Virus record (IMG/VR): IMGVR_UViG_3300021591_000018
Coordinates: 1 to 64,000 of that record
DNA from: a virus
Length of the DNA stretch: 64,000 nt
Strand: one strand, 5' to 3'
A program made the position numbers and the translations under genes. Shown piece by piece: positions 1,277 to 60,984 of this stretch. How positions within the stretch are numbered: the first letter of the stretch is position 1; every line of letters begins with the position of its first letter. A model generated the notes under the pieces. The model ran no database searches and was not told the DNA's origin. It saw only the letters and a program-made list of their open reading frames with translations.

Positions 1277-2047
1277 ATGTTAGTTGTGAAAGCTCCTGAT
1301 CCAAGAGAGCAGTACAAGAAGACTCCAGCTAAGAGAAGAGTAAGAGAGACAATCGAGGTCGAAGAGATTGAACCCATAGGTATAGGAGATGGACGAGAGA
1401 GAGTCTTCTACCTTCCATCAGGGAAACCAATTCGGGTGTTTGTTAATGGACGAGAAGTCAAGGACGTTGAGATAAGTGAAGGAAAGTTGACCTTCAGAGA
1501 TCCTCCAAGAGGATCCATAGCGGTTCTGTTGAGACGAGAGAGAACTATCCTTCGGTGGATAAGGTACATAAGAAGTAAGGAGACAGAGGAGGGTATCGAA
1601 TCCACCATCATTCGATGGGGAGACTTCTTGGATGAACTCAAGAAGAAACTACGCTATCGACCACTGAGTGAATGCGTCCAATTAGCAGAGGAACTTATCG
1701 GTAAGAAGCTCTACGTCTTGACTAAGGAGAGAGTCATCTACCACATCAGGAGGACGCTCTTTGGAGAGACAATAGCTGCAAGTGGAGTCATGGACACTGT
1801 TGAGAGCCTGGAGGAGGACTTTATCAAACTAGGTCGATGGGGACTAGGATGCCCAAACAATTGTGGAAGATTCTGGTGGTTCGTTCCATACGGAGATGGA
1901 TGGAAGCCAGCTGATCCAGCAGCTTACCTCCCATACACTGATCCTGAGACAGGTGAAGTTCGGAACGGCTACCTCAACTGGCAGGACGATATGAGTTTTA
2001 CCTGTGATCGATGTGGAGCCAAGATCAAGCTCGAGGTGAGTGAGTGA
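1277..2047 (+). CDS. Hypothetical tail-region protein with GIGDG...VFVNG beta motif and C-terminal Cys pairs (Zn ribbon)
   Basis: ORF track 1241-2047; ATG at 1277 is preceded by GGTGAAGG. CPNNC...CDRC motifs. Confidence 0.5.
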   Translation: MLVVKAPDPREQYKKTPAKRRVRETIEVEEIEPIGIGDGRERVFYLPSGKPIRVFVNGREVKDVEISEGKLTFRDPPRGSIAVLLRRERTILRWIRYIRSKETEEGIESTIIRWGDFLDELKKKLRYRPLSECVQLAEELIGKKLYVLTKERVIYHIRRTLFGETIAASGVMDTVESLEEDFIKLGRWGLGCPNNCGRFWWFVPYGDGWKPADPAAYLPYTDPETGEVRNGYLNWQDDMSFTCDRCGAKIKLEVSE

Positions 2048-4293
2048 TGGCAACCGTTACTGCGTATCGGTTGAGGGAGCCCGTTACGAGACTTGTGATT
2101 AGGCCGAGTGGAAAGACAAGGCTATGCCTACCGGCGGACTATGCGAATAATAAACTCTTCAGATGGAACCAAGAAGTTACTGCTTCAGGTTGGAGTGTTC
2201 AGGGTAATCCTTACGCTGATTTCGTCAGATATGGCGTTGGATCAGTTATAATAAATTCCGGCTCTCAAGTGAAATTACATCGCGTTGGTTACACCGTTGT
2301 TTGGGACACCGTTTCTTGGAACGATCTTGTAGGTTTCTCAATCGACACGGTAAATCACATGTTTTCTATTCAATTTATACTCGACAACGATAAGGAGGAG
2401 ACTCTCGACTTCAGCAGCTATACGGAGGGAGCCGACGGGTCGCCGCTGATATACGACGATGATGAGAGTTTCTGGACAGCGATAGGAATAGGGTCGGGAA
2501 CTGTTCAAGTTCCGACACTTAGTGAAGAACTCACAGAAGTTAAAAAAGGAACTAGCTCACTTAAAGTAACTGTAAATACAACAGGAGGTAGTTATGCTGG
2601 CTGGGCTATTTATCATGACTATGCAACATCTCAAGATTGGAGCTCCTATGATTTTCTATGCCTCTATTGGTATGGAGCAAATTCAGGCACAACAATAAGA
2701 ATATATATTCCCGCACCCGATGGAGCAAATCAATTCTATTATGATCTTATCGATAATTGGACAGGGTGGAAGCGACTAGTTATTCCGCTTAGAGCTTTCT
2801 CCACTTATGGTTCTCCAAGCTGGAGTAATGTCACAGCGATAGATATAAGAAGCCAAGCTGACCCCGCCGATGCAACATACTATCTCGATCGCACGCTGGT
2901 CGATGTGGGGCAGTGGGCTGTTGTTGAGATATTCGTTCCAGATGTTTTGAAGAATGATTCATACGGTTTCTCTCTGTATAGCTGGAATGGATCAGAATAT
3001 GCGATCTTCTTGGCGTATAACCCCTATAACACTGACGACATCGGAACAACGGGCTGGCACAATCTCGTGTTCCTCGATGGAACTACTTCTTTAGATATTT
3101 ATCCAGGAGAAGGCTACATGATTCATGGACGAGGAGAAGTCGGTTCGAGAGGCGAAACAATCTCAGGAGTTCGAATGCAGAATGCAAGCTACAGCTCCTA
3201 CTACGGCTGTCGCCGCCGTCTCGGATTCGCTTTAAAATTACCACCCGACGACGGCCAAGACGCCAGCGACTATGGCATCTCACAGTGCAAGTTGAAATTG
3301 GAAGTCTATTACAGTGAAGACGAGAGTCGACGGATCGTCTATGACAGTAGCGGATACGGAAATAACGGTACTATCTACGGTGGCCCGACCTCTGTTGACG
3401 GTCGATTTGGACGTGCACTTTACTTCGATGGCGACGATTGGGTTGATGTTGCCCCAGGTAGTAACATACTGAACCTCCGAGAGAAAGTCACTGTATGCAC
3501 ATGGATAAAGATAAGCTCAACGCCGCCTGGCTATGTGTTCGCTTATGGCTCCGGCTTTTGGCCGCATCTTCAACTTGGCCTTGGGCTCAGTGGTTTGCAA
3601 AACTACACTGAGATCGAAACTGAAACCTCGTTTACGAATCTCTACGGTTCGACCGTTCCGCTGAATCAGTGGACATTCATAGCAGTGACGTATGATGCGT
3701 CCACAGGTGATTTGAAACTTTACAAGGATGGTCAATTTGATGCATCAACTACGCATAGCGGCAAGTTGTGGGAGGCGAATTCCTTCAAAGTTGGTAGTAA
3801 GTACGATGCCACCTTTAACTTCATAGGTTGTGTTGACGAAGTACGAGTCTACAATCGCGTCCTTAGTGAGAATGAGATCAGGCAACTATACGAGGGTGTT
3901 AACATCACCGACGGACTCGTCCTCCACCTGAAGCTAGACGAGGAAATCTACTACGGGTCCGCAACCTATGAATTCGAAGACAGCACTAACCAATACTATG
4001 GACTCCAGAACATTAATGAGCAGTGGCTTGCACTATTCAACCCTGATGACGATGAACTCGAGTTCTACTGCTTCGAGAAGCGTCCGACTTACATCTCCGT
4101 ACGAGCAGATGAGAACGAGATCATACGGGAAGTGATAGTTGACTTCCCGAAGCCTACCATCATCTACAAGGGCAAGGTTACAGGGGTTGACTTTAGCGAA
4201 GACAAAGACGGCAACGGTGTCCCAGACGTGTTCGAGACTTACTTCCCGTACCTCGAGGAGTTCGTCTCTGAGAAAGAGGTGACGGTTGCATGA
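2044..4293 (+). CDS. Virion/tail protein with CBM-like and LamG (concanavalin A-like) domains
   Basis: 749 aa. DSSGYGNNGTIYG...GRFGRALYFDGDD...WTFIAVTYD...LYKDG...FIGCVDEVRVYNRVLS is a recognisable LamG_3 pattern. Confidence 0.75.
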   Translation: MMATVTAYRLREPVTRLVIRPSGKTRLCLPADYANNKLFRWNQEVTASGWSVQGNPYADFVRYGVGSVIINSGSQVKLHRVGYTVVWDTVSWNDLVGFSIDTVNHMFSIQFILDNDKEETLDFSSYTEGADGSPLIYDDDESFWTAIGIGSGTVQVPTLSEELTEVKKGTSSLKVTVNTTGGSYAGWAIYHDYATSQDWSSYDFLCLYWYGANSGTTIRIYIPAPDGANQFYYDLIDNWTGWKRLVIPLRAFSTYGSPSWSNVTAIDIRSQADPADATYYLDRTLVDVGQWAVVEIFVPDVLKNDSYGFSLYSWNGSEYAIFLAYNPYNTDDIGTTGWHNLVFLDGTTSLDIYPGEGYMIHGRGEVGSRGETISGVRMQNASYSSYYGCRRRLGFALKLPPDDGQDASDYGISQCKLKLEVYYSEDESRRIVYDSSGYGNNGTIYGGPTSVDGRFGRALYFDGDDWVDVAPGSNILNLREKVTVCTWIKISSTPPGYVFAYGSGFWPHLQLGLGLSGLQNYTEIETETSFTNLYGSTVPLNQWTFIAVTYDASTGDLKLYKDGQFDASTTHSGKLWEANSFKVGSKYDATFNFIGCVDEVRVYNRVLSENEIRQLYEGVNITDGLVLHLKLDEEIYYGSATYEFEDSTNQYYGLQNINEQWLALFNPDDDELEFYCFEKRPTYISVRADENEIIREVIVDFPKPTIIYKGKVTGVDFSEDKDGNGVPDVFETYFPYLEEFVSEKEVTVA

Positions 4294-7200
4294 CGTGGGA
4301 GATCTACATCGACGGTGAGATCCATTCTGGTTCCATAGTGAAGATAGTCGAGGAGCTCAACAACCACTCAGAAGCGATCATTCGACTCCCACGGTCACCT
4401 GAGAACATTGAACTCGTCCAGAGCGACAGAGACGTAGACATCTACTTCGACGACAAGAAGATCCTCTCTGGTAAACTGATGGCTGCAAAGTTCAAGTATG
4501 ACTACATCGAATGTACGATCTATCCAGAGGCTGAGGACAAGCTTAAGAACAGCATCATAACGGGAACGTACGAAGACGCATCTCCAGAGACAGTCGCACA
4601 AGCGATATGTGATGCTGCAGGACTTACACTCGGATCCGCTCCTTCAACTCCAACTGTGAGTGTACGATTCGACCATGCTGTCTGTTGGGATGCTCTACGC
4701 CACCTCTGTGACGTCATCGATAAGGACTTCTGGTTCGACGGATCGACAGTCTACATAGGAGACAGAGGAACATCAGTCGGAGAAATCGTCCCACAAGGTC
4801 TTTCACGTCGAGCAGTCGATCGAAGTAAGGTTAAGAACAAGGTCATCATCCGAGGAGTGGACAAAGATGGCAATACAATCTACGGTGTAGCTCAGACAGG
4901 TGCTGGAGACAGAGTCATCGTCTTCACAGAGAAGAGAACTATGACTCAAGAAAACTTGAATCAGCTAGCACAGACGAAGCTCAAGGAACTGTCAAAGGAG
5001 GCAACTGGAGTAGCTTTCGATGTTTCACCTGATGTCGGAGTCAGTCTCAATGTCGGTGACACTGTCTACATCAACGCTGAAGAACTCAACCTCGTAGGCA
5101 ACTTCCGTATCTACCGGTTGACGAGAAAGGCAGAGAAGACCATCGTCGAAATTGACCGACCTGAACTTGTACTCGAATCCGTCTTCGAGGACATGCAGAG
5201 ACTCGAAGACCTTGGCATCTACCCGGTAAGTGCTGAGCAGCTTGACAATCCACCTGGACCACCTGCAGCACCAACTGGATTAACTGCTACACCACAGATC
5301 GGAGCCATTCTCCTTAAATGGAATGCTAACACCGAGGCTGACCTCGACCACTATGAAATCTATCGAGACACTTCAAGTCCTGCCTCTACTAAGATCGCTG
5401 AAGTCCACGCTACCTCATACCTTGATGAAGACGTCGAATACGGTGTGACGTACTACTACCGGATCAAGGCAGTCGACAGAGTTGGCAACAAGTCGGACTT
5501 CTCAGCTGAAGTCTCAGCGTCTCCACGTCAAGTCGAGACACCTGACCTTGAGGATCAATCAATTACAACAGATAAAATCGTCCCCGAAGCTGTTACAACC
5601 CCAATTCTTGCTCCCGACGCTGTAACAACCGAAAAGATCCAAGACCAGGCTGTCACTGAGCTTAAGCTTGCGGATCTGGCTGTTTCGACTCTGAAAATCC
5701 AAGACCTAGCTATAACCGAAACGAAAATTGCAGACGACTCGATCTCAACTCCCAAGCTTCAAGCAAATGCAGTGACTGCAGCAAAGATTGCTGCAGGAGC
5801 CGTTACTACTGAGAAACTCGATGCACACGCTGTTACTACGCGAAAACTCTACGTCTATCAGGTTCTCCTCGACAGTCCCGGATTTTCGGCTTCAGGTGGT
5901 GTACTCTCTTGGAATAGTTTTACACTTACCTATCAAGGCGTCGACTATGAGATCTCCTCTGGTAGCACTTCTGACATGTATATCTACTGGAAGGAAGGTG
6001 ATACATTCCTCTCAAGTAGCAATACGAAGCCAGATATCGCATCTGATCCATCCATCCATATGATTGCGGTATTCGACGCTTCAACCAACACTTTCTGGGA
6101 AGTTTGGAAGCCAACGGTAGTTCACGGCGGCATGATCATTACAGAGACAATTAGTACCGAGGAACTGGCTGCAGATGCAGTCACAACAGAGAAGATCCGC
6201 GCCGAAGCAGTCACAACAGCGAAACTGGCAGCTGGAGCCGTAACGTCTGAAAAAATTACTGCCGACTGGATCACAGGTAAGAAATTCCGCACAAGTGGAA
6301 GGGCGACCCCAGCAGCTGGAGTGGAATTTGATGACAACGGTATCCGAGGGTACGGAGATGCGACGACGAAGACATTCGAGATCGAGGCTGCAACTGGTGA
6401 CGTTAAAGTCTACGGTTCACAACACTTCATAGTGGCGGATGAGACTGGAACATCTATCGGTTACCTCGAGCATACAAGATACACGTTTGACTCGACTGAC
6501 TATGACACCGCGAGACTCGTAGCACCTTCACACTCTGCTGCAATTGAGGCATCAGGCTACTACTTACTACTACGACAAGATGGCAATTGGATTATAGGTG
6601 GTGACCCAACCATCCTTCCAGTAAGCGATCTACAAGTGAGGATCGGTGACAATTCGCATCGGCTGAAGGAGATTCATGTTGAAAGCCTTTACGCTGAGAA
6701 CCTCTCTGGGACGATCAATATCCTCAACTCCGATCTCGATGCTAACAGTCACAAGATCTACAACTTGAGTGGGTTAGAGCCAGATGGAACTGGGACACGA
6801 GACATCGGAACTTCTACTCTTCAATGGAAGGACGGTTACTTCGCTGGAACAGTCTACGGTGGATCAGGAGACTTTGGGAGTCTGTTGATTGGTGGGACTG
6901 AGGTGATTACAGGCTCGAGAGTTTTGCAGAATATCGCCTCGATTAACGTAAACCTACTTCCAAGTGATAACGATTTCTTCGATCTCGGCTCGGAGTCTTA
7001 CAAGTGGCACAGGCTGTTCCTTGGCTCTACAGATGTCGGCCTGAATGCGGGTGGAAGCATAGTGATCGGCGATGACACGAGCAATCTGAGGATAGATGAC
7101 AACGAAATACAACAATACGGGAATTCCCTTTATATTAATATCGATTCCCATGTAGACACGATTTTTGGATGTAACGTAAGACCTCATTCTGATAACGCCT

Positions 7201-9905: not shown

Positions 9906-10427
9906 ATGCCGCTTTCGTGGACACAGGACATCAGTTCCGGTGCATCTATTGACTCAGCTGACGTACAGGAAATCCGGGACAACATCGACGCTGTGATCGA
10001 CTGCAGTCCAGAGTGTAGTGCAGATTACATCTCAGTGGAGTCCGGATTCGATATTGGCGTCTACACTACCGAGGACTACAATGCATATACCACAGCATAC
10101 ACGAATGTAAAGTCCGGAGAGGACATCTCGGTGTTGACGGGATATGATGCCGATGTATATGTGGGCGAAAATACCTCCGAAGACAGTGGGAAAAACTCTT
10201 CAGTCGATACAGGTGACTTCGTGTCTGTTAAAACCAATTACGACTCCGGAGAAAATGTTGGTGATGATATCGGCTACGACTCCACCTACAAAGCGGGAGT
10301 GGACGGGGAGGATTACGGTGACTACAACTCATCCTACGATGGAGCCGTCGACTCCAGCGATTATGGGGATCACAACTCACCGTACAATATCACGGTCAAG
10401 TCTTCCCACAATTCAGGGGTGACATGA
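9906..10427 (+). CDS. Acidic tetrapeptide-repeat protein B (one leader-like motif plus 35 four-residue units); candidate rSAM substrate
   Basis: MPLSWTQDISSGASIDSADVQEIRDNID is paralogous to protein A. 4-aa register from CSPE to NSGV. Confidence 0.75.
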   Translation: MPLSWTQDISSGASIDSADVQEIRDNIDAVIDCSPECSADYISVESGFDIGVYTTEDYNAYTTAYTNVKSGEDISVLTGYDADVYVGENTSEDSGKNSSVDTGDFVSVKTNYDSGENVGDDIGYDSTYKAGVDGEDYGDYNSSYDGAVDSSDYGDHNSPYNITVKSSHNSGVT

Positions 10428-11701
10428 TGGAAGCGGCAGAGCTACTTACAACGGGCTGGTGTCCATTGAACTGTACGTATTGCTACATTCCGAAGAGCCG
10501 GATGATGATCCATCTTCACTCACGCATTCGAGGGTATCTTCAGTCCGGTGAATTCATCGAGGATCTTAAGCGTTTCTACGGTGGCAAGCTCCACTTCCTC
10601 GGGTTCTGGGGTACTGAGCCGCTCTTGACTCTCTCGGACATCAAGCCACATCTACCCGAGATAGTAGAGGCGTTTCCAAACCTCGAAGCAATCAGCTTCA
10701 GCACGTCGTTGCTGTACCGTCCACTGGAGATAGTCGACTTCGCTGCAGCTATGCCGAGGAAAATTCAGCTTCGAGTCCAGATAAGCGTTGACGGTCCAGC
10801 TTGGATTACAGACCGCAACCGACGTGTAGGAGCTGCTGAAGAGATTCCACGGAACTTCGAAACAGTATTGAGGGAACTCAATGCGACGTCGACGTGCCCA
10901 GTCGAGTTCCGGTGGAAGGTGACGCATTCGATCGAGAACATCCGAGGCTTCACGCCGGAAAGGGTGAGAGGGTTCATCGGTTACTTCAAAAGGCTAAACG
11001 CAACTTTCGACAGAGTTAACCGGAGACGAGATGTCACTCTGCGACGTGGGAGCTTCTGTCCAACCATAGTGGTTCCAGGGAAGTACACCGCAAATGATGG
11101 CAGGGCATTTGCCAGATATCTACGTCTCTTTCACGCTGAAAACTTCGACACTAGTTATACTTATCGACTCCGGAGGATCATAGACTTGTTTCCTGACATT
11201 GCGAAGACTCGGATGTTCACATGCAGTGGCGGCGACAGCAATGCCGGGGTCGGATTCGGGAAGTTGCACATCTGCCACAGAACGTTTTACTACGATTGCC
11301 CGGAGTACGTAGAGAGCATTGTGACTCAAGAGCGATACAAGAACTGGGATGTCAGTCACTTTGAGGAAGGAACTGTAGACTGGGTCGCAAGGTGGTTTAT
11401 CACTGATGATGTCCCTCGTTTCCGCTATGTTATGAGAGGTTACCACGACTTCTGGAGATTCAAGATCAGTTATACTGAGACTATGGTTCAGTTGCTTGCG
11501 AAAGTCGGCGAAGCGAATCCGAGGTATCTTTCTGACCCTGGATTTAGGCAACTCTTCGCCATCTTCGAAAACGTTGCGCTGAGTTGCCCGATGGAGAATC
11601 TTCTCAACACTGGGTCTATACACCTCCAGACTTTGAGCCTTATCCGCATGTTTGCGAATGGAGCTTTCGAGGAGTTGGTGGAGCGATGCAAGAGAAGATG
11701 A
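10424..11701 (+). CDS. Radical SAM enzyme 1 with reduced SPASM/Twitch-like C-terminus
   Basis: CPLNCTYC (CxxxCxxC), WGTEPLL, ISVDG, then TCSGG...ICHR and a distal CPMEN. Confidence 0.85.
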   Translation: MMEAAELLTTGWCPLNCTYCYIPKSRMMIHLHSRIRGYLQSGEFIEDLKRFYGGKLHFLGFWGTEPLLTLSDIKPHLPEIVEAFPNLEAISFSTSLLYRPLEIVDFAAAMPRKIQLRVQISVDGPAWITDRNRRVGAAEEIPRNFETVLRELNATSTCPVEFRWKVTHSIENIRGFTPERVRGFIGYFKRLNATFDRVNRRRDVTLRRGSFCPTIVVPGKYTANDGRAFARYLRLFHAENFDTSYTYRLRRIIDLFPDIAKTRMFTCSGGDSNAGVGFGKLHICHRTFYYDCPEYVESIVTQERYKNWDVSHFEEGTVDWVARWFITDDVPRFRYVMRGYHDFWRFKISYTETMVQLLAKVGEANPRYLSDPGFRQLFAIFENVALSCPMENLLNTGSIHLQTLSLIRMFANGAFEELVERCKRR

Positions 11702-12912
11702 TCGAGTACATCCTCGAGAGGACATTCTACAAGACCTGGAGAAACGGCGAAGGGTTATTCAGTAAGCTCGAGCTCTTCGTGAATCCGTATTGTAACCTCC
11801 GATGTAAGTACTGTTATCTGCAACGTTACAGTGAAGGGCTGTACCCACCAGAAGCGAGGAAACCACCGAGAGAGATACTGTCCAATGGACTGAGAGTCCT
11901 TCGATGGTTGAAAGCGAATGACTTCCGCCCTGAGATCGAGATTTTCAGTGGAGAGCCCTTGATTCAGCCAGCCTGCATCGAACTGATGGTTCGAGCTTCT
12001 GAAGTTGCGAAACAGGTAGTTGTGCCAACGAACTACACCTTCCTGCTCTCCGAGAGGCTTACGCGTTTGGTGGAGTCTACACTTCGCCCGAACATCGTGC
12101 TCTCCGCAAGCTTCGACGGTAAGTACTGCGAGCACGCAAGGCCATTCAAACACGGACCCGAACTCCGGGACGATGTCTACTACGACAAATGTTTCCAGTT
12201 CAACGCAAAACATCGCTTTGGTTTTCACCCGATGGTCGCTCCGCAGAACATCGAAAACTGGACTGAGAACTTCCTCTGGTTCCAGGAGAACTTTAAGAAA
12301 TTCGGAATCCCATGGACGAATTTGTACTTGCTCGAAGTCCGAAACCCTGAATGGACAAAGTCTCAGCTTCGCCACCTCGATGAGTTCCTCCGGTTTCTTG
12401 TACGTTGGAGTTGGAAGAAGTGTCAGTCCAGTAACAGGCTGTTCCGTGAGTTCCTTTTCAAAGGACGCGGCTTCAATATTCTCAGTAGTCCCTTCGTTAC
12501 CATTGGACGTGGGATTGGGTGCTCAATTCAATCCACGCTGACAATTCGCCTAGGTGATCTTGCAATAGTCCCATGTCATCGAACTGCATATAAGCCTTTC
12601 ATCCTTGGGTACTTCAGAGATGGGATCGAAATCACAAATCCGGAGCTCTTCGTCGCAGTGTACAGTTTCGATCGCAGATCGCTACCTTATTGCGAGCAAT
12701 GTGATATTCGTGAACTCTGTAGTGGAGGATGTCTAGGAGCACAGCTGGAAAGCCTCGGAGATATGTTCACTCCACATCCGAATGTCTGTTTACTTGAGCA
12801 TATCAAGATTAATGCAATTCTTTCAGAACTTAATGAGATAGGAGTTCTCTCGTACCTAACTAAGTTTATTCGAACCGAGAAGCAAAAAGCGATCGAGGGG
12901 TGGATAAAGTGA
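11686..12912 (+). CDS. Radical SAM/SPASM enzyme 2
   Basis: CNLRCKYC, FSGEP, ASFDG; full SPASM GCSI...PCHR...CEQCDIRELCSGGC...VC. Likely start is ATG 11686 (after GGTGGAG) or 11698 (ATGA overlap). Confidence 0.9.
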   Translation: MQEKMIEYILERTFYKTWRNGEGLFSKLELFVNPYCNLRCKYCYLQRYSEGLYPPEARKPPREILSNGLRVLRWLKANDFRPEIEIFSGEPLIQPACIELMVRASEVAKQVVVPTNYTFLLSERLTRLVESTLRPNIVLSASFDGKYCEHARPFKHGPELRDDVYYDKCFQFNAKHRFGFHPMVAPQNIENWTENFLWFQENFKKFGIPWTNLYLLEVRNPEWTKSQLRHLDEFLRFLVRWSWKKCQSSNRLFREFLFKGRGFNILSSPFVTIGRGIGCSIQSTLTIRLGDLAIVPCHRTAYKPFILGYFRDGIEITNPELFVAVYSFDRRSLPYCEQCDIRELCSGGCLGAQLESLGDMFTPHPNVCLLEHIKINAILSELNEIGVLSYLTKFIRTEKQKAIEGWIK

Positions 12913-25738: not shown

Positions 25739-25982
25739 AACCGTTCACCTCCTTCCACTTGAGGTAGAGTGTTGCACAATACCCAACTATGTCGGCAAGC
25801 TCATCGAGGAATTTGCGGCTTTCAATATCGATGTAGCGTAGTCGTATGGCTTTCATCTCAAGGACTCGTTGAAGAGTTTCGACCTCCAGATGTCGCCATA
25901 GGTCACCGTACTGTCGTTCCTTGACGTTTCCAACTTCGAACTCACAAAGGTCTCGAATTGCGTCTATGACTTCTTGTACCAT
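25710..25982 (-). CDS. MazG-like / nucleotide-modification-associated alpha-helical protein
   Basis: KERQYGDLW...K..RL...DELADIVGY pattern. Confidence 0.6.
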   Translation of the reverse strand: MVQEVIDAIRDLCEFEVGNVKERQYGDLWRHLEVETLQRVLEMKAIRLRYIDIESRKFLDELADIVGYCATLYLKWKEVNGCEVLADSTY

Positions 25983-26638
25983 GGCATAATCACCCCAAGG
26001 TCAGTCTGCAAGACTTCGACTAACTTATCGAATGTAAGATCTTCGATCTGTTTGTTGTAACCTCTCTGGAATCGACACTTCGTTATTGTTGCGAAGTACT
26101 TCGTCTCATGAGGTAGGATTTGCTTCTGTAAGTGGAGGACGACATCTACCATGTGCTCAGTTTGACGCTGAACTCTCGGTTCATCCATTGGGAGTCGTCT
26201 ACCTTGTTCGTCGTAAAGTGGTCTCGGTTGGCCTGTCAAAATTACGTGGACGTTTGGCTTTGCCATCAACCGGAGAATTAGTCGTCGGTATCGTAGATTT
26301 GCCTTACCCCATTCGAACTGGTAAGGTCGCCCCGATTGTGTTCGGGCTGTTGCAACTCCCTCAAGCCATGCACCAATCCACTGCCAGATATCGGTTACGC
26401 TATCGATGACTATCGTTCCTTCATTGATTTCCTTTAGAAGTCCGACAGCCTCTTCGACTGCCTCGAGTGACTTCACTGGATCAACTTCAGCTGTATTCAA
26501 GTCAAGCTGTGCTGCTTCGAATACCCGTATGTCCTTACTCTTGAACGGCTCCTTCAGCAACAATGGCGCCACTCCAAACTCCGTATCTATGACATGGATC
26601 GGTTCCGGGGCCGTAAGTGCGAAATGTGTCTTGCCCAC
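25964..26638 (-). CDS. Exon 2 of P-loop ATPase (AAA_24/Sak4-like recombinase)
   Basis: Begins mid-Walker A (VGKT); VIDTE and IVIDS Walker B; adjacent to the SSB gene. Confidence 0.85.
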   Translation of the reverse strand: MGKTHFALTAPEPIHVIDTEFGVAPLLLKEPFKSKDIRVFEAAQLDLNTAEVDPVKSLEAVEEAVGLLKEINEGTIVIDSVTDIWQWIGAWLEGVATARTQSGRPYQFEWGKANLRYRRLILRLMAKPNVHVILTGQPRPLYDEQGRRLPMDEPRVQRQTEHMVDVVLHLQKQILPHETKYFATITKCRFQRGYNKQIEDLTFDKLVEVLQTDLGVIMPWYKKS

Positions 26639-26907
26639 ATCCGGGGTGATGAGGATACGCCGGGGTGGCAGAGAGGACCTGGGCCGGTCGAAAGAAAACC
26701 GTCCTCATCACCTTAACGTGACGGTGAGGATGCCCGGGTCGCATAGCGAGGTCAGTCCTCGGTTGGGAAGTGGTTTTCCCACCTCACCGTCTTTCCGTGG
26801 TGGTCCGACCACGTGGGTTCTTGGTCCTGAGTTACCCCGTGGCGCAATGGATCCGCCCTGTCCCACTCAGGACCACCCACCCGGGCGTCCACTATTCCTC
26901 ACCACCA
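26639..26907 (-). ncRNA. 269-nt bulge-helix-bulge (BHB) intron in a protein-coding gene
   Basis: GCCCA/UGGGC exon stem, CCGG/CCGG 4-bp helix, AAU and AUG 3-nt bulges, 11-bp intron stem. Excision restores GPPE-VGKT in frame. About 62% GC by hand count. Confidence 0.9.
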
Positions 26908-27024
26908 TTCCGGTGGGCCCCAGACGAGCACTTTCAGCCCCGTTTTCTTTACGATCTTGTCAGGGGTCTTCCAGACGTCGTCGTATGACTTCTCTTCCTC
27001 CGCACCCATCAAATTCCACGACAT
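26908..27024 (-). CDS. Exon 1 of P-loop ATPase (39 codons)
   Basis: MSWNLMGAEEEKSYDDVWKTPDKIVKKTGLKVLVWGPPE with GAGGTG SD. Unspliced, it reads into WW-stop. Confidence 0.85.
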
Positions 27025-27101
27025 ACGAACACCTCTCGAGGATCACCTCGATATATGGTCGAGGAAGAAATCAGGGTAATCGGACAAACTGAGTGGTCGC
27101 A

Positions 27102-35215: not shown

Positions 35216-35230
35216 TTTAAATTTCTCTCA
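35216..35230 (-). promoter_or_regulatory. TGAGAGAAATTTAAA BRE/TATA-like motif (copy 1 of 4)
   Basis: Near-identical motif at 43526-43542, 52546-52561 and 53781-53800, always at gene boundaries. Confidence 0.5.
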
Positions 35231-37306
35231 ATTAAATTTTGAGACGGTTCCATCAAACAGATGGCGTTGACGATATTCCTCCTGTTTGCCTTGATTCCAG
35301 TTCTGTACAGGACGGTAGTATCCCGTGATTCGACTGTAAACCTCACAAGTGCTCTTACATGACGGACAGACGTCATGATGTCCTGGCCAATATCCACAGT
35401 TCGGACAGATACTGAACGTAGGTGTGATGGTTACGTACGGTAGACGGAAACTGTAGAAGATTCGTCGTATGAGCTTGCTACATCCTTCCCAGGATGGCAA
35501 AGCTTCTCCTAGCCAGGTGTGGAAGACAGTCCCTCCAGTGTAAAGCTCCTGTAGAAGTTCCTGATGTTCGAGTGCCTCAGCAAGGCTGAACTCTACCCAC
35601 ACCGGCAGTTGTGTTGAGTTCGTATAGTATGGCGTCTCCTTACCTGACGTGTAGATATCATCGAACATCTGTCGATCAATCAACGCCAATCTATAACTGC
35701 AACTCTCAGCAGGAGTTGCCTCCAGATTGTAGAGGTGACCAGTCTCTTCCTGGAAGTCAACTAAACGTTCACGCATGAACATGAGGACGTCAATCATGAA
35801 CTCACGTCCCTCGTCAGTCTCAATTCCCTTACCGAGGTAGTTCATACAGCACTCATGCCCACCAACGATTCCAATCGTTGAGAAGTGATTTGTCCAGTAG
35901 CTACCTGTTGCATCTTTAATCGGTTGAAGGTACTTTTGTGAGTATGGATAGAGTCCAACTTCAGTTAACTTCTCGACTGTTTTACGTTTCAACTCAAGGC
36001 TTTCCTTTGCAAGTTGCATCAATTCGTCCAACATCTCGAAGAATTCATCATCGTCGTTTGCTATGTAACCAATTCGTGGGAGGTTAATCGTCACGACTCC
36101 AATTGAGCCTGTCATTGGGTTTGCTCCGAAATACCCTCCACCTTTCCTGTAGAGTTGACGTGTGTCCAGACGGAGACGACAACACATACTACGCACTTGG
36201 TCTGGACTCATGTCGCTGTTGATAAAGTTCGCAAAGTAAGGCGATCCATACTTCGCAACCAACTTCCAGAGGGACTCGTCGTCCCAAGTGAAGTCAGGTG
36301 TCACGTTATACGTTACTATCGGAAATGTAAAGATCCGTCCATTTGCGTCTCCCTCGTACATGGCTTCACAATAGACTTCGTTGAACAAGTCGACCTCGTC
36401 CTGAAAGTCACCGTAGACGTCGCCTTTCAACTCACCTCCACAGATTACGGCTTCATTCTCCATAAACTTCGGAACGATTCGGTCGAACGTCACATTGGTG
36501 AATGGCGTTTGGAACCCGACTCTCGTCGGAACGTTCATGTTGAAGAGGAACTCCTGTAGCTCTTGTTTCACTTCATCTCGAGTAAGTCCATCGTATCGTA
36601 TGAATGGTGCGAGATACGTATCGACGTTGCTGAATGCTTGTGCACCAGCAGCCTCTCCTTGTAACGTATAGAGGAAGTTCCAAATCTGTCCAAGTGCACT
36701 ACTGAAGTGCTTAGGTGGTTTACTCTTGATCTTTCCGAAGACACCACCAAAACCTTCGATTAACAGTTGTCGTAAGTCCCATCCGACACAGTACGGACCA
36801 AGTACACCAAGGTCATGTATGTGGAAGTCACCGTCCTGGTGAGCTTTACGAATCCCAGGTGGATAAACTCTCATCAACCAATACTCTGAGATGCTACGCT
36901 GTACGAGGTAGCAATTCAAACCTTGCATCGAGTAACCGATGTTCGCATTCTCCCGAACCATCCAGCTGCTACGATTGAGATACTCGTCAATAACGTCACC
37001 TGACTCGATGAGATGTGCCAATCTCCGCATTGTCATACGTTGTTCTCTGTAAAGTATGTATGCTCTTGCAACCTCATAGTATCCATGCTTCATGAGGACT
37101 TTCTCTACGATGTCCTGAATCTCCTCGACAGTCGGGACTCCATCGTCTCCAAATCGTCGTCCTATGTACCAGAGAACAGAGTTGACGAGTTTTTCGACGT
37201 CTCCTCTCGTACCTACTGCTCGGAAAGCTTTCTCTATAGCTGTCCTGATCCTCTCACGGTCAAACTCAACAAGACGACCGTTTCTCTTTCGAACGTACTT
37301 TACCAT
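35228..37306 (-). CDS. nrdD: Class III (anaerobic) ribonucleotide reductase with ATP cone
   Basis: VRKRNG ATP cone, HIHDL, YCVGW, SMCCRL, EATPAES, CPNC..CPSC, YSRITGYY glycyl-radical loop. Confidence 0.95.
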   Translation of the reverse strand: MVKYVRKRNGRLVEFDRERIRTAIEKAFRAVGTRGDVEKLVNSVLWYIGRRFGDDGVPTVEEIQDIVEKVLMKHGYYEVARAYILYREQRMTMRRLAHLIESGDVIDEYLNRSSWMVRENANIGYSMQGLNCYLVQRSISEYWLMRVYPPGIRKAHQDGDFHIHDLGVLGPYCVGWDLRQLLIEGFGGVFGKIKSKPPKHFSSALGQIWNFLYTLQGEAAGAQAFSNVDTYLAPFIRYDGLTRDEVKQELQEFLFNMNVPTRVGFQTPFTNVTFDRIVPKFMENEAVICGGELKGDVYGDFQDEVDLFNEVYCEAMYEGDANGRIFTFPIVTYNVTPDFTWDDESLWKLVAKYGSPYFANFINSDMSPDQVRSMCCRLRLDTRQLYRKGGGYFGANPMTGSIGVVTINLPRIGYIANDDDEFFEMLDELMQLAKESLELKRKTVEKLTEVGLYPYSQKYLQPIKDATGSYWTNHFSTIGIVGGHECCMNYLGKGIETDEGREFMIDVLMFMRERLVDFQEETGHLYNLEATPAESCSYRLALIDRQMFDDIYTSGKETPYYTNSTQLPVWVEFSLAEALEHQELLQELYTGGTVFHTWLGEALPSWEGCSKLIRRIFYSFRLPYVTITPTFSICPNCGYWPGHHDVCPSCKSTCEVYSRITGYYRPVQNWNQGKQEEYRQRHLFDGTVSKFN

Positions 37307-37310
37307 CTGA

Positions 37311-37715
37311 TCACCTCGTGAAGGGGATCTCCTTACCAAAGGGAGTATTCTTTACCTCTGGTAAGTTGGTAACATAGGCAACTAATTCAAAACTACAGTT
37401 GAACTTAAGAAGGATTTCTCTTAAGTCTTCGATAATATCAGTTGGTAATTCAACTTTGAAGGTGACGTTCTCTAAGCTGTAAGTGTAATCTTCACCTGTT
37501 GAGGGCAACTTTTCAAGTTCTTCGAGCAAGATGCCGTTGAATGGCCCATATGTGTAGTTGTAATAGCTAAGTGATGTTAGTCTTCGACCAGTCTTCTGAT
37601 AGTAGATTCTCTCGAGAAGATATGCTGTTTTGAGAAAGGTCATGACATCTACAGTTGAGTAACCTAGATTCTTAAGGATCTGACACACTGTTAACGCGTA
37701 CTCATCTGGATTCAT
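37311..37715 (-). CDS. Panacea (DUF4065/SocA-like) antitoxin domain protein
   Basis: KTAYLLE...TGRRLT...YNYTYGPF. Confidence 0.7.
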   Translation of the reverse strand: MNPDEYALTVCQILKNLGYSTVDVMTFLKTAYLLERIYYQKTGRRLTSLSYYNYTYGPFNGILLEELEKLPSTGEDYTYSLENVTFKVELPTDIIEDLREILLKFNCSFELVAYVTNLPEVKNTPFGKEIPFTR

Positions 37716-57985: not shown

Positions 57986-58447
57986 TTGGACTGTAAAGTC
58001 TGTCAGTTGCCGGATGCCCCGGAGATCGTAAGACGTATCAAAGCCAACGAAATCTCAATAGCCGAAGGAGCGAAGCTACTCGGTGTTAGTTACCGAGAAC
58101 TCTGGTTGCACCTTAAGAATTGTGTGGTCGACAAGCCACGCGAAACTTCAGTTGATACACTCCAACTACTCGAGGAATTGCTGCGCATCCTACGACAGAA
58201 GCTGCTTGAGCTCGACAGAATGGAAGTCTCAACAGCCAACATTTCCGCTCTTGCTAAAGTCGCCGACAGTCTACGGAAGACTTGCATGGACATCGAGCGT
58301 CTAACAGGTAAATTAAGAGCGGCACCGCTTATACAGCTGCAGAAGATCACCATCCACTACGAGAACCTTCTACAGATCATCTCAACGGAACTTTGTCCTG
58401 AATGTCGGCGTAAAGTCCTGAAGAAGCTCGAGGCGATGACAGTATGA
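57986..58447 (+). CDS. Putative terminase small subunit
   Basis: CKVC...HTH...HLKNC and coiled coil; ATGA-coupled to TerL. Confidence 0.65.
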   Translation: MDCKVCQLPDAPEIVRRIKANEISIAEGAKLLGVSYRELWLHLKNCVVDKPRETSVDTLQLLEELLRILRQKLLELDRMEVSTANISALAKVADSLRKTCMDIERLTGKLRAAPLIQLQKITIHYENLLQIISTELCPECRRKVLKKLEAMTV

Positions 58448-60984
58448 TCGATCCGAGAGAGAAAACCATCAAGATACTAAAAGCATTAGAAGACCCTGTC
58501 TACTTCTGTGAAGACGAGTACTTTCTCGGTGCGAAGCTCTACCCGAAGCAAGCTGAGGTGCTACGGAAGTTCTATAACGGTGGATACAATGAACTTGTAC
58601 TCATCGCCGGGATGAGATGTCTTTCACCAGAAACCATCATCTACACAAACCCGTATCCAAAGCCGCTGAAGGAGTTGAACGAGGACGACCTTGTTCTTAC
58701 GTTCCGTAACGGTAAATTCGAGTGGTGCAGATGCCAACTCATACGTCAACGCGCACGTATGGTCTACCGTCTTGTAACGTACTCAGGACGTGAAATCTAC
58801 GCAACTGAGAATCACCCGATTCTAACGTCGAGAGGCTGGATGACGGTTTCATCAATGCTCGAATCGACCTCGTTACCTTACGTTGCAATGTGCCACAAAG
58901 TTCCTCCACCACTTCACCCAATACACGATCCAGATTATGCGACTGCTGTTGCCCTATTCCTCTCAGAGGGTTGCTGGATAACTTCGACTCCACTCTTCTC
59001 GAATCGTGACCCTGAGCTGATCGACACTTTGCGAACTGTACTAAAACGTCGATTTAATGGAGAGTTACGTGGAGGACCGAAGGACTTTCGCATCATAAGT
59101 AAACAATTCCGTGAGGAGCTACATGAACTAAAAGGCAAGAAGTCCGCTGAGAAGTTCATCCCAAAGAGAGTCTTCGAACTTGACGATGAAAGTCTTAAGA
59201 AATTCATCTACTACTTCTGGAGAGGTGACGGTGGAATCGAAGGTGGTAAAGTTCACTTCTACAGCACAAGCAAGCGCTTACTGCAACAGCTACAATTTCT
59301 CCTCCTCCGATTCGGGATACGTAGCTACTTACGTAGACGTCCACAGTACAAATACTACAAACGTGCGCACCCAGAAATGAAGAGTACGAATGAGAGTTAC
59401 GATCTCGTCGTACATGACGACATTTCAACGATCATTCCTGAGGCACCAAGGTGTCAACATAATGGCACATCACCAATGGATAAAATCGGACTCAAGTTAA
59501 GAGACCTTCGAGAAATTTGTGAAACCTCACTCTGGAAGCTACGTCAGCTTATGTGTACGAACACAAAGAACACCATAAGCTTAAAGAATGCACGTAAGAT
59601 TGCTCATCTCATACCAATGTTCGGATGGGAAGACGTTTACTTCGAACCAATCGTTAGGATCGAGCCTATCGGAGTTCGTGAGACGTACGACTTATCTGTA
59701 CCTCATGAAGGTCATGCATTCGTCGCGAATGGTATCATCGTTCATAACAGTGGCAAGACATTTCTCGCTTCTTGTTTCGCAGCTTACGAGGCGTTCAAGC
59801 TCTTGATTAAGCCTGACCCAGCTGCCTACTACAACCTGGCTCCAGGTAGTCCGATCTTCATTGTCGTAGTTGCGACTTCTGAGAAGCAGGCTTACGATAC
59901 GATATTCAACGAAATTAAACAAAAGTTAATGAGAAGTCCGTTCTTCCGTGAGTATCATCCACGATTCCTCATGAACGAAATCATCTTCCAGTCAAAGAAT
60001 GTACGCATACTCTGTGGTACGTCTTCATCTGCCTCATTAGTAGGTCGAAACGTTAAGTTAGCGATTTTTGACGAGCTGGCTCGATTCGAAGAGTCAACCA
60101 GTAAGAGAGGAGCTTGGGAAGTTTACACGTCATTGAAACGTTCAACTGCAACCTTTGGAAAGGAGGGCTACTGCATTTCGATTTCCTCGATCCGTCATCC
60201 AAATGACATTATGATGACTCTCTATCGTCAAGCTCAGACTAACCCAAGGATGTTCGCACTTAAGTTTGCCACGTGGGAGTTCAACCCAAACTTCAAACTC
60301 GAGGACTTTAAGTTCGAACTTCAACGAGACCCACTTGCATTCTGGAGAGACTTCGGTTCGAAGCCGTTTGCTGGTCAAGCACCCTTCTTCGCTAACATTG
60401 ACGTCGTACCCTTCGATAGCAGTATACCAAACAACCTTGAGCTGCTCGCACGTGGAGAGAAGACCTACTTCAATGAGGAGGCAACCTATGTCTTGGCTGG
60501 TGACCCTGCTATTCGCCATGATGCATTCGGACTCGCTATCGTCCATGAAGTTGAACCTGGTCAGTACGTTTGCGACGGACTTTACCGTTTCAAACCAATG
60601 GGGACCGACCTTTCTCCAGTCGAGATAAAGAACTTCATCCTTCGCGTACTTGACCACTGTAACGTCATAACTGCAGTTTTCGACACCTGGAACTTCCCAG
60701 AACTACAGGAGGAAATTCGCTCACATGGTGTCGAAGTGCTCAACCACATCGTCCGTAAGGAAGATTACGATCGCTTCAAAGAATTCTGTTTCAAACGGTG
60801 CATCCGAATATGTGACTATCCAATTCTTCGTCAGGAACTCGAACAACTTCAAATTGTCAATGTCAAGAGGGTTGATCACCCACCTGGTGGAAGCAAAGAC
60901 GTTGCCGATGCATTAGTCAATGCTCTATGGGCGATTTCCGAATTTCAACCTGAGCTACCGTTGAACGTGGCGGTGATCGTATGA
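58444..60984 (+). CDS. Terminase large subunit containing an intein
   Basis: LYPKQ; AGMR|SGKT Walker A split by the intein; IFDELA Walker B; GDPA...D; DHPPGGSKDVADA nuclease end. Confidence 0.92.
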   Translation: MIDPREKTIKILKALEDPVYFCEDEYFLGAKLYPKQAEVLRKFYNGGYNELVLIAGMRCLSPETIIYTNPYPKPLKELNEDDLVLTFRNGKFEWCRCQLIRQRARMVYRLVTYSGREIYATENHPILTSRGWMTVSSMLESTSLPYVAMCHKVPPPLHPIHDPDYATAVALFLSEGCWITSTPLFSNRDPELIDTLRTVLKRRFNGELRGGPKDFRIISKQFREELHELKGKKSAEKFIPKRVFELDDESLKKFIYYFWRGDGGIEGGKVHFYSTSKRLLQQLQFLLLRFGIRSYLRRRPQYKYYKRAHPEMKSTNESYDLVVHDDISTIIPEAPRCQHNGTSPMDKIGLKLRDLREICETSLWKLRQLMCTNTKNTISLKNARKIAHLIPMFGWEDVYFEPIVRIEPIGVRETYDLSVPHEGHAFVANGIIVHNSGKTFLASCFAAYEAFKLLIKPDPAAYYNLAPGSPIFIVVVATSEKQAYDTIFNEIKQKLMRSPFFREYHPRFLMNEIIFQSKNVRILCGTSSSASLVGRNVKLAIFDELARFEESTSKRGAWEVYTSLKRSTATFGKEGYCISISSIRHPNDIMMTLYRQAQTNPRMFALKFATWEFNPNFKLEDFKFELQRDPLAFWRDFGSKPFAGQAPFFANIDVVPFDSSIPNNLELLARGEKTYFNEEATYVLAGDPAIRHDAFGLAIVHEVEPGQYVCDGLYRFKPMGTDLSPVEIKNFILRVLDHCNVITAVFDTWNFPELQEEIRSHGVEVLNHIVRKEDYDRFKEFCFKRCIRICDYPILRQELEQLQIVNVKRVDHPPGGSKDVADALVNALWAISEFQPELPLNVAVIV
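58618..59748 (+). mobile_element. Intein with LAGLIDADG homing endonuclease (377 aa)
   Basis: Starts CLSPET; block B ATENHPIL; LFLSEG and FWRGDGG; TYDLSV; ends IIVHN followed by S. Confidence 0.95.

Follow-up and report, generated by a model that had tools for sequence, protein, structure and literature searches.

Introns that are removed by proteins, with a bulge-helix-bulge (BHB) fold at their junctions, are a textbook feature of tRNA and rRNA genes in archaea. The splicing endonuclease EndA cleaves each bulge behind its second nucleotide, and the excised rRNA and tRNA introns are known as circular RNA. To our knowledge, BHB introns in mRNA are regarded as a curiosity that is essentially limited to cbf5. 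A 2021 review places BHB introns primarily in rRNA and tRNA genes (PMC8598171). The motif, a 4-bp helix between two 3-nucleotide (nt) bulges, is the determinant for archaeal EndA (PMC4090602), and such introns occur in the cbf5 pre-mRNA (PMC2738675). Here, we analyse a stretch of viral DNA of 64,000 nt (positions 1 to 64,000 of the IMG/VR record IMGVR_UViG_3300021591_000018, hereafter the window), in which a 269-nt insert splits the Walker A motif of an AAA_24/Sak4-like ATPase gene. We regard it as highly likely that this insert is an archaeal-type, protein-spliced BHB intron in the ATPase pre-mRNA, which would put a known intron type in a new setting, a viral mRNA.

The cbf5 intron of Desulfurococcales and Sulfolobales (Watanabe 2002; Yokobori 2009, PMC2738675) resembles the present case in several respects. 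It lies in a protein-coding gene, its removal restores a catalytic motif, it is present in some relatives and absent from others, and the machinery is presumed to be EndA plus a ligase. It differs in being one short intron at one site of a cellular gene, with no endonuclease open reading frame (ORF), whereas the ATPase gene is viral, its insert is 269 nt long, and inserts occur at seven sites in the gene family, two of them with LAGLIDADG ORFs. The LAGLIDADG-bearing BHB introns in rRNA and tRNA genes of archaea (PMC8598171, PMC4090602) share the BHB junctions, the optional occurrence, the existence of long ORF-bearing and short ORF-less forms, and a GC-rich stable structure. They reside, however, in cellular stable-RNA genes, whereas here a viral mRNA is concerned, with the reading frame and translation at stake. 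The group I introns of phage (T4 td, nrdB, and nrdD; PMC3984707) are comparable in that they are selfish, occupy conserved catalytic motifs in genes for viral DNA metabolism, occur both with and without endonuclease ORFs, and are polymorphic between related viruses. They are self-splicing ribozymes, whereas the present intron carries no ribozyme signature and would depend on host proteins. Finally, the putative 12-bp introns of the rudivirus SIRV1 (Peng et al. 2004, as cited in PMC2738675) are likewise short inserts, proposed as introns, in the protein genes of an archaeal virus. As far as they are described in the citing paper, they are in frame and of unproven splicing, whereas the insert analysed here combines a full canonical BHB with obligatory frame repair. 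The SIRV1 inserts were the nearest report in our full-text literature searches, which turned up no account of a BHB intron in a protein-coding gene of a virus; an earlier note on this DNA, which knew of no described viral case, agrees with these searches. Splicing is not treated in the text of a 2026 survey of archaeal viral genomes (PMC13465236), where the word "intron" appears only in one reference-list entry.

The ATPase gene lies in a replication module, adjoining a family-B DNA polymerase (PolB) gene. Its parts, with the elements upstream of its start codon taken from direct reading of the sequence, are as follows.

27041-27049, − strand: second purine-rich element GAGGTGATC, further upstream of the exon-1 ATG
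27030..27037, − strand: Shine-Dalgarno-like element GAGAGGTG, 5 nt upstream of the exon-1 ATG
26908..27024, − strand: exon 1, from ATG at 27024 to GAA at 26908, 39 codons, MSWNL...GLKVLVWGPPE, within the ORF 26899..27024
26639..26907, − strand: insert (putative intron), 269 nt (269 mod 3 = 2)
25964..26638, − strand: exon 2, starting GTG GGC AAG ACA (start sequence VGKTHFALTAPEPIHVIDTEFG), VGKTHFAL...PWYKKS plus stop, 224 codons

Exon 1 contributes strand β1 as well as GPPE, which is the first half of the Walker A sequence GPPEVGKT. If the transcript is read through without splicing, exon 1 continues as GAA TGG TGG TGA (E-W-W-stop), and translation would end two codons into the insert. Splicing according to the EndA cut rule joins the codons ...CCA CCG GAA to GTG GGC AAG... 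and yields a frame of 792 nt for a protein of 263 amino acids (aa), which reads VLVWGPPE/VGKTHFAL (a slash marks the junction here and below) and contains ...VLVWGPPEVGKTHFAL.... The Walker A motif GxxxxGK[ST] is complete in the spliced reading only, and none of the unspliced polypeptides has the whole motif. The two exons were analysed separately, and the joined 263-aa reading was analysed in local scripts. Exon 2 alone matches the Pfam family PF13479 AAA_24 (E 4.2e-13, 50 bits against a cut-off of 27 bits), which we take to be linked to Sak4-like RecA-core ATPases. The alignment begins only at profile position 13 and therefore lacks the first strand together with the initial half of the P-loop. 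The 41-aa upstream ORF that holds exon 1 has no Pfam match of its own. Upstream of the exon-2 GTG, direct reading found no purine-rich or Shine-Dalgarno element comparable to those preceding exon 1. The exon boundaries, the 269-nt insert, and the immediate stop given in the earlier note match our reading of the − strand base for base.

Gene callers fragment this gene. In place of one 263-aa protein, a 202-aa product that starts at an internal GTG (P0001) and the 41-aa exon-1 ORF (P0041) are present in the protein collection. On the other strand, a spurious ORF of 228 aa (26406-27092) spans the GC-rich intron.

The exon-intron junctions can be folded into a BHB, in which the cut rule predicts one cleavage per bulge.

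26896..26918, − strand: 5' half of the BHB, with outer helix 26918-26914 (GCCCA), central helix 26913-26910 (CCGG), bulge 26909-26907 (AA^U), and inner helix 26906-26896
Between 26908 and 26907, − strand: predicted 5' cut, in the bulge AA^U
26633..26655, − strand: 3' half of the BHB, with inner helix 26655-26645 (UCCUCAUCACC), central helix 26644-26641 (CCGG), bulge 26640-26638 (AU^G), and outer helix 26637-26633 (UGGGC)
Between 26639 and 26638, − strand: predicted 3' cut, in the bulge AU^G

The outer helix GCCCA/UGGGC has 5 bp, the central helix CCGG/CCGG has 4 Watson-Crick bp, and the inner helix GGUGGUGAGGA/UCCUCAUCACC has 11 bp, including one G-U pair. With two 3-nt bulges on opposite strands and helices flanking both sides, the motif has the strict hBHBh' form. 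Its layout is that of the canonical pre-tRNA BHB, with the 5' central strand in the exon and the 3' central strand in the intron. The unconstrained minimum-free-energy fold of 26930-26620 (− strand) reproduces the BHB, with z = -3.55 for this 311-nt stretch. When the motif is placed in a 561-nt context, the mean pair probability of its three helices amounts to 0.89-0.98 between 37 and 70 °C and to 0.75-0.85 at 85 °C; the computed ensemble leaves the bulge nucleotides unpaired. The perfect 3-4-3 BHB proposed earlier for these junctions is thus borne out by its strict geometry and also by unconstrained folding.

Comparative evidence supports the reading of the insert as a BHB intron. A search with the exon-2 protein returned 40 relatives, most of them about 260 aa in length and about 40 aa longer at the N-terminus. 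Exon 1 aligns to the N-termini of these relatives and stops exactly one residue short of their GKT. The P-loop GPPEVGKT found in P0016, L001, L016, L012, and L020 is identical to that of the spliced product, and P0018 carries GPPETGKT. When 41 loci from related sequences were compared by tblastn, about 33 were uninterrupted at the E/V site, and so were the proteins P0003-P0020. The spliced 263-aa reading is colinear with the homologs of about 260 aa. The earlier note had derived the in-frame GPPE-VGKT junction and the 263-aa product from the cut rule, had suggested alignment to intron-less homologs, and had expected similarity to exon 1 among homologs. Its predicted P-loop is that of the closest intron-less relatives (L001, L016, and P0016), and the match of exon 1 to the N-termini of the approximately 260-aa homologs leaves its claim unrefuted.

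The nucleotide sequence of exon 1 was further compared with that of the intron-less L001 and L016. The proportion of nonsynonymous differences (pN) is 0.18-0.19 and that of synonymous differences (pS) 0.77-0.81, the synonymous sites being saturated. With pN far below pS, exon 1 has been retained as coding sequence under purifying selection. Around the junction, the window exons read GGC CCA CCG GAA/GTG GGC, and the intron-less relatives read GGG CCT CCT GAA/GTT GGG or similar. Three synonymous choices in the window exons (CCA, GTG, and GGC) build the outer helix, which the codons of the relatives are unable to form.

Related viral contigs have inserts in this gene at six further sites. The same cut rule mends every one of them, bringing back the reading frame as well as the conserved residues.

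P-loop Lys codon: L017, 71 nt; L006, 81 nt (1100-1180), the L006 insert being in frame
DTE/FG: L001 = L021, 482 nt (L001 3531-4012), with a LAGLIDADG-like ORF
EAA/ILD: L006 (1297-1371) and L023 (105-179), 75 nt, with a perfect BHB of 11 + 6 bp helices
DPE/TAE: L023, 541 nt (194-734), with a LAGLIDADG-like ORF
QFE/WG: L016, 67 nt
WG/KAN: L001, 68 nt (4287-4354)

The window intron, at the E/V boundary, is located two codons upstream of the Lys-codon site. In several of the relatives' inserts, the outer helices are weak or missing, as in relaxed BHBs. The inner helices of the two Lys-codon inserts (L017 and L006) differ by two compensatory double changes and two one-sided changes, with zero disruption of pairing. 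The 541-nt insert is cleanly present in L023 and absent from L006 at CCGGAA/ACCG, where the two alleles are 93-95% identical around the site. The ORFs of the 482-nt and 541-nt inserts are homologous (34% identity, E 3e-19), and one of them gave a borderline match to Pfam LAGLIDADG_3 (E 2.7e-4, 21.6 bits against a cut-off of 22.5 bits). Because some of its members carry LAGLIDADG homing-endonuclease ORFs, the population of BHB inserts in this gene, to which the window intron belongs, most likely consists of mobile selfish elements.

Two BHB-type inserts per ATPase gene are found in L023, L006, and L001; those of L023 are only 14 nt apart, and the second carries the LAGLIDADG ORF. A 198-nt extra segment in L040 was also considered as an intron and turned out to be an in-frame, stop-free protein insertion instead. 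L001 derives from a viral contig of 76.9 kb that is collinear with the window over the upstream genes and those for the ATPase and PolB, with amino-acid identities of 57-79%. Its PolB contains an in-frame intein in the DTD motif (L001 7302-8240; ...IY/EDSV...VLHN/TDSLFV...), which is absent from the window PolB.

Several observations weigh against reading the window insert as a BHB intron. In a blind BHB scan of the 64-kb window (both strands, spacings up to 1.2 kb), strict motifs with inner plus outer helices of 13-19 bp were the top matches in 25 dinucleotide shuffles of the window; the real motif has 16, and by helix length alone it is within the range of shuffled sequence. Loose BHBs are also near background (111 in the window versus about 85 in shuffles). 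The intron was found in one DNA sequence only. A second carrier is only implied by the protein P0002, which is 80% identical and starts at VGKS, probably at the same intron site. Neither a search with P0002 against viral contigs nor a DNA pattern of both inner-helix strands found a second copy, and a search with the exon-1 protein returned only the self-match. In the protein collection, no spliced-form protein was present at about 100% identity. The virus record contains no EndA. Moreover, the cut position within the bulge is taken from the established enzymology, and frame repair tests symmetric spacing only, although the E-V residues at the junction favour the canonical cut position. The scan of the window for other ORFs mended by a BHB gave 1856 candidates, mostly noise, and was uninformative.

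The occurrence in a single sequence, and the chance appearance of BHB-like geometry of similar helix length somewhere in 64 kb, would both suit a dead gene. The insert would then be a decayed mobile element, or DNA resembling a miniature inverted-repeat transposable element, that broke the gene and whose ends are complementary by chance, leaving no functional ATPase. We consider this improbable. The significance of the BHB is positional and does not lie in the motif alone. The probability of such a motif at one fixed pair of positions is about 5e-10, a figure that applies here because the positions are set independently, by the break in homology against the intron-less proteins; a chance BHB would have to fall exactly at that break. 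In addition, both exons are intact and free of other lesions, exon 1 retains its Shine-Dalgarno element and ATG as well as the low pN, and the exonic synonymous sites suit the outer helix. The six further inserts in relatives follow the same rule, unlike random gene-breaking insertions.

Between its junctions, the intron is highly structured and has a GC content of 62%, compared with about 46% for the virus. It matched no Rfam family at the gathering score or at E <= 10, tblastn detected no LAGLIDADG remnant in it, and it contains no endonuclease ORF. Blastn against all related loci retrieved revealed no similarity to the other inserts or loci, and within the virus record the intron is single-copy (self-match only). 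A C/D-box RNA was considered and rejected, as the GUGAUGA and CUGA boxes are about 110 nt apart even if the intron is circularised and there is no Rfam match. One internal repeat was identified.

26702..26712, − strand: GGUGAUGAGGA, perfectly complementary to the inner-helix strand on the 3' side and almost a copy of the one on the 5' side

This repeat may have been left behind when the ends of the intron were duplicated internally. It also raises an alternative in which the insert is a true BHB intron but its splicing is conditional. The 11-nt complement, which lies 46 nt upstream of the 3' inner strand, would sequester that strand co-transcriptionally and act as a switch, or the released RNA would be functional. 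The length, GC content, and structure of the intron, with no ORF to account for its size, would fit such a role. In the equilibrium ensemble, however, the alternative helix is not populated, with a probability of 0.00-0.03 versus 0.75-0.98 for the BHB helices at 37-85 °C. No intron homologs were found in which its conservation could be tested. The chance that splicing is conditional in this way therefore seems slim to us.

It is very unlikely that the insert is a self-splicing group I or II intron, or an intein removed at the protein level. Group I introns are frequent in phage replication genes, and inteins are present in other genes of this virus and of its relative L001. However, the Rfam search described above covered group I, group II, and the other Rfam families and gave no match. 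Group I introns end in a terminal G, and their upstream exon ends in U, which forms the P1 wobble pair; on direct reading, the window insert ends ...CCGGAU, with no terminal G, and its upstream exon ends in A. A length of 269 nt is far below group II size. An intein is excluded, since the reading frame closes two codons into the insert and 269 is not divisible by 3.

Ribosomal bypassing (a hop from CCG 26913-26911 to CCG 26644-26642), or the assembly of separately translated ORFs, is hardly credible: CCGGA is directly repeated at both junctions and would provide Pro-codon take-off and landing sites that are also in frame, but 269 nt would have to be spanned, compared with about 50 nt in the translational bypasses known to us, the central helices of other family members are not repeats (GGGG/CCCC in L001, for example), which a hop would fail to explain, the exon-2 GTG has no Shine-Dalgarno element, and we know of no precedent for a P-loop split over two polypeptides.

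For the preferred reading as a protein-spliced BHB intron, we infer the following course of expression from the sequence. One transcript would start upstream of the exon-1 ATG, and its exon-intron junctions would pair into the strict hBHBh' motif. Host EndA would cleave after the second nucleotide of each 3-nt bulge, and the host ligase RtcB would join the exons into ...CCACCGGAA/GUGGGCAAG..., which would encode the 263-aa protein with an intact P-loop GPPEVGKT. The predicted exon-exon junction sequence is CCACCGGAAGTGGGCAAG, also written CCACCGGAA/GTGGGCAAG. The excised intron would probably be circularised by RtcB, with the predicted circle junction ...CACCCCGGAT/TGGTGGTGAGG. The virus very probably needs the tRNA-splicing machinery of its host to produce this ATPase.

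The record, which is from an archaeal tailed virus (linear, 76,753 bp long, and estimated by CheckV to be 69% complete), offers some signals as to the host. The nearest named relatives of PolB and the ATPase are in tailed haloarchaeal viruses, at 24-26% identity. The window also encodes a complete anaerobic ribonucleotide reductase NrdD with an ATP-cone (35228-37339, − strand; Pfam E 1e-191). The closest cellular homologs of the viral NrdD, at 56-67% identity, are almost all from Bathyarchaeia, which points weakly to Bathyarchaeia as host or gene donor. Each of the four Bathyarchaeia genomes checked has two EndA paralogs (about 190 aa) and one RtcB. We take this arrangement to be a two-subunit enzyme that accepts relaxed BHBs, which would fit, as a hint, the relaxed motifs in the relatives' inserts. 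The ATPase was detected in only 2 of 401 Bathyarchaeia genomes, as weak partial matches that give no proviral host link, and an initial ATPase scan of genome contigs found no relative.

If the reading is correct and viral mRNAs carry BHB introns in numbers, expression of a core viral replication gene can hinge on the tRNA-splicing enzymes of the host, a new kind of host dependency and a possible point of control or defence. BHB introns would then act as mobile elements in viral gene pools, an archaeal counterpart to the group I introns and inteins of phages, and viruses would offer a route by which BHB introns move between cells. A wider version of this proposal seems to us about evenly balanced between right and wrong. 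According to it, tailed archaeal viruses carry a population of mobile BHB introns in essential replication genes, which spread by means of their own LAGLIDADG endonucleases or, where they lack an ORF, in trans. Replication of these viruses would depend on host EndA and RtcB, and with every infection stable circular intron RNAs would be released, which may themselves be functional. If BHB introns are numerous in viral mRNAs, such genes are also systematically mistaken for fragments by gene callers, and metagenomic viral and archaeal proteomes would thus be under-read.

Besides the RNA-level intron, the window virus bears a protein-level selfish element. An 846-aa ORF (58444-60984, + strand), probably the large terminase by its position, contains an intein (Pfam Intein_splicing E 7.7e-11, LAGLIDADG_3 E 1.1e-13). 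The endonuclease of this intein has no detectable similarity to the intron endonucleases of the relatives. Elsewhere in the window, two adjacent radical S-adenosylmethionine ORFs (10424-12912, + strand; Pfam E 3e-7 and 3e-8) lie downstream of a 749-aa ORF with Laminin_G_3/CBM domains (2044-4293), and the segment 56001-58000 has a strongly skewed composition, with a GC skew of -0.61 and a GC content of 0.40.

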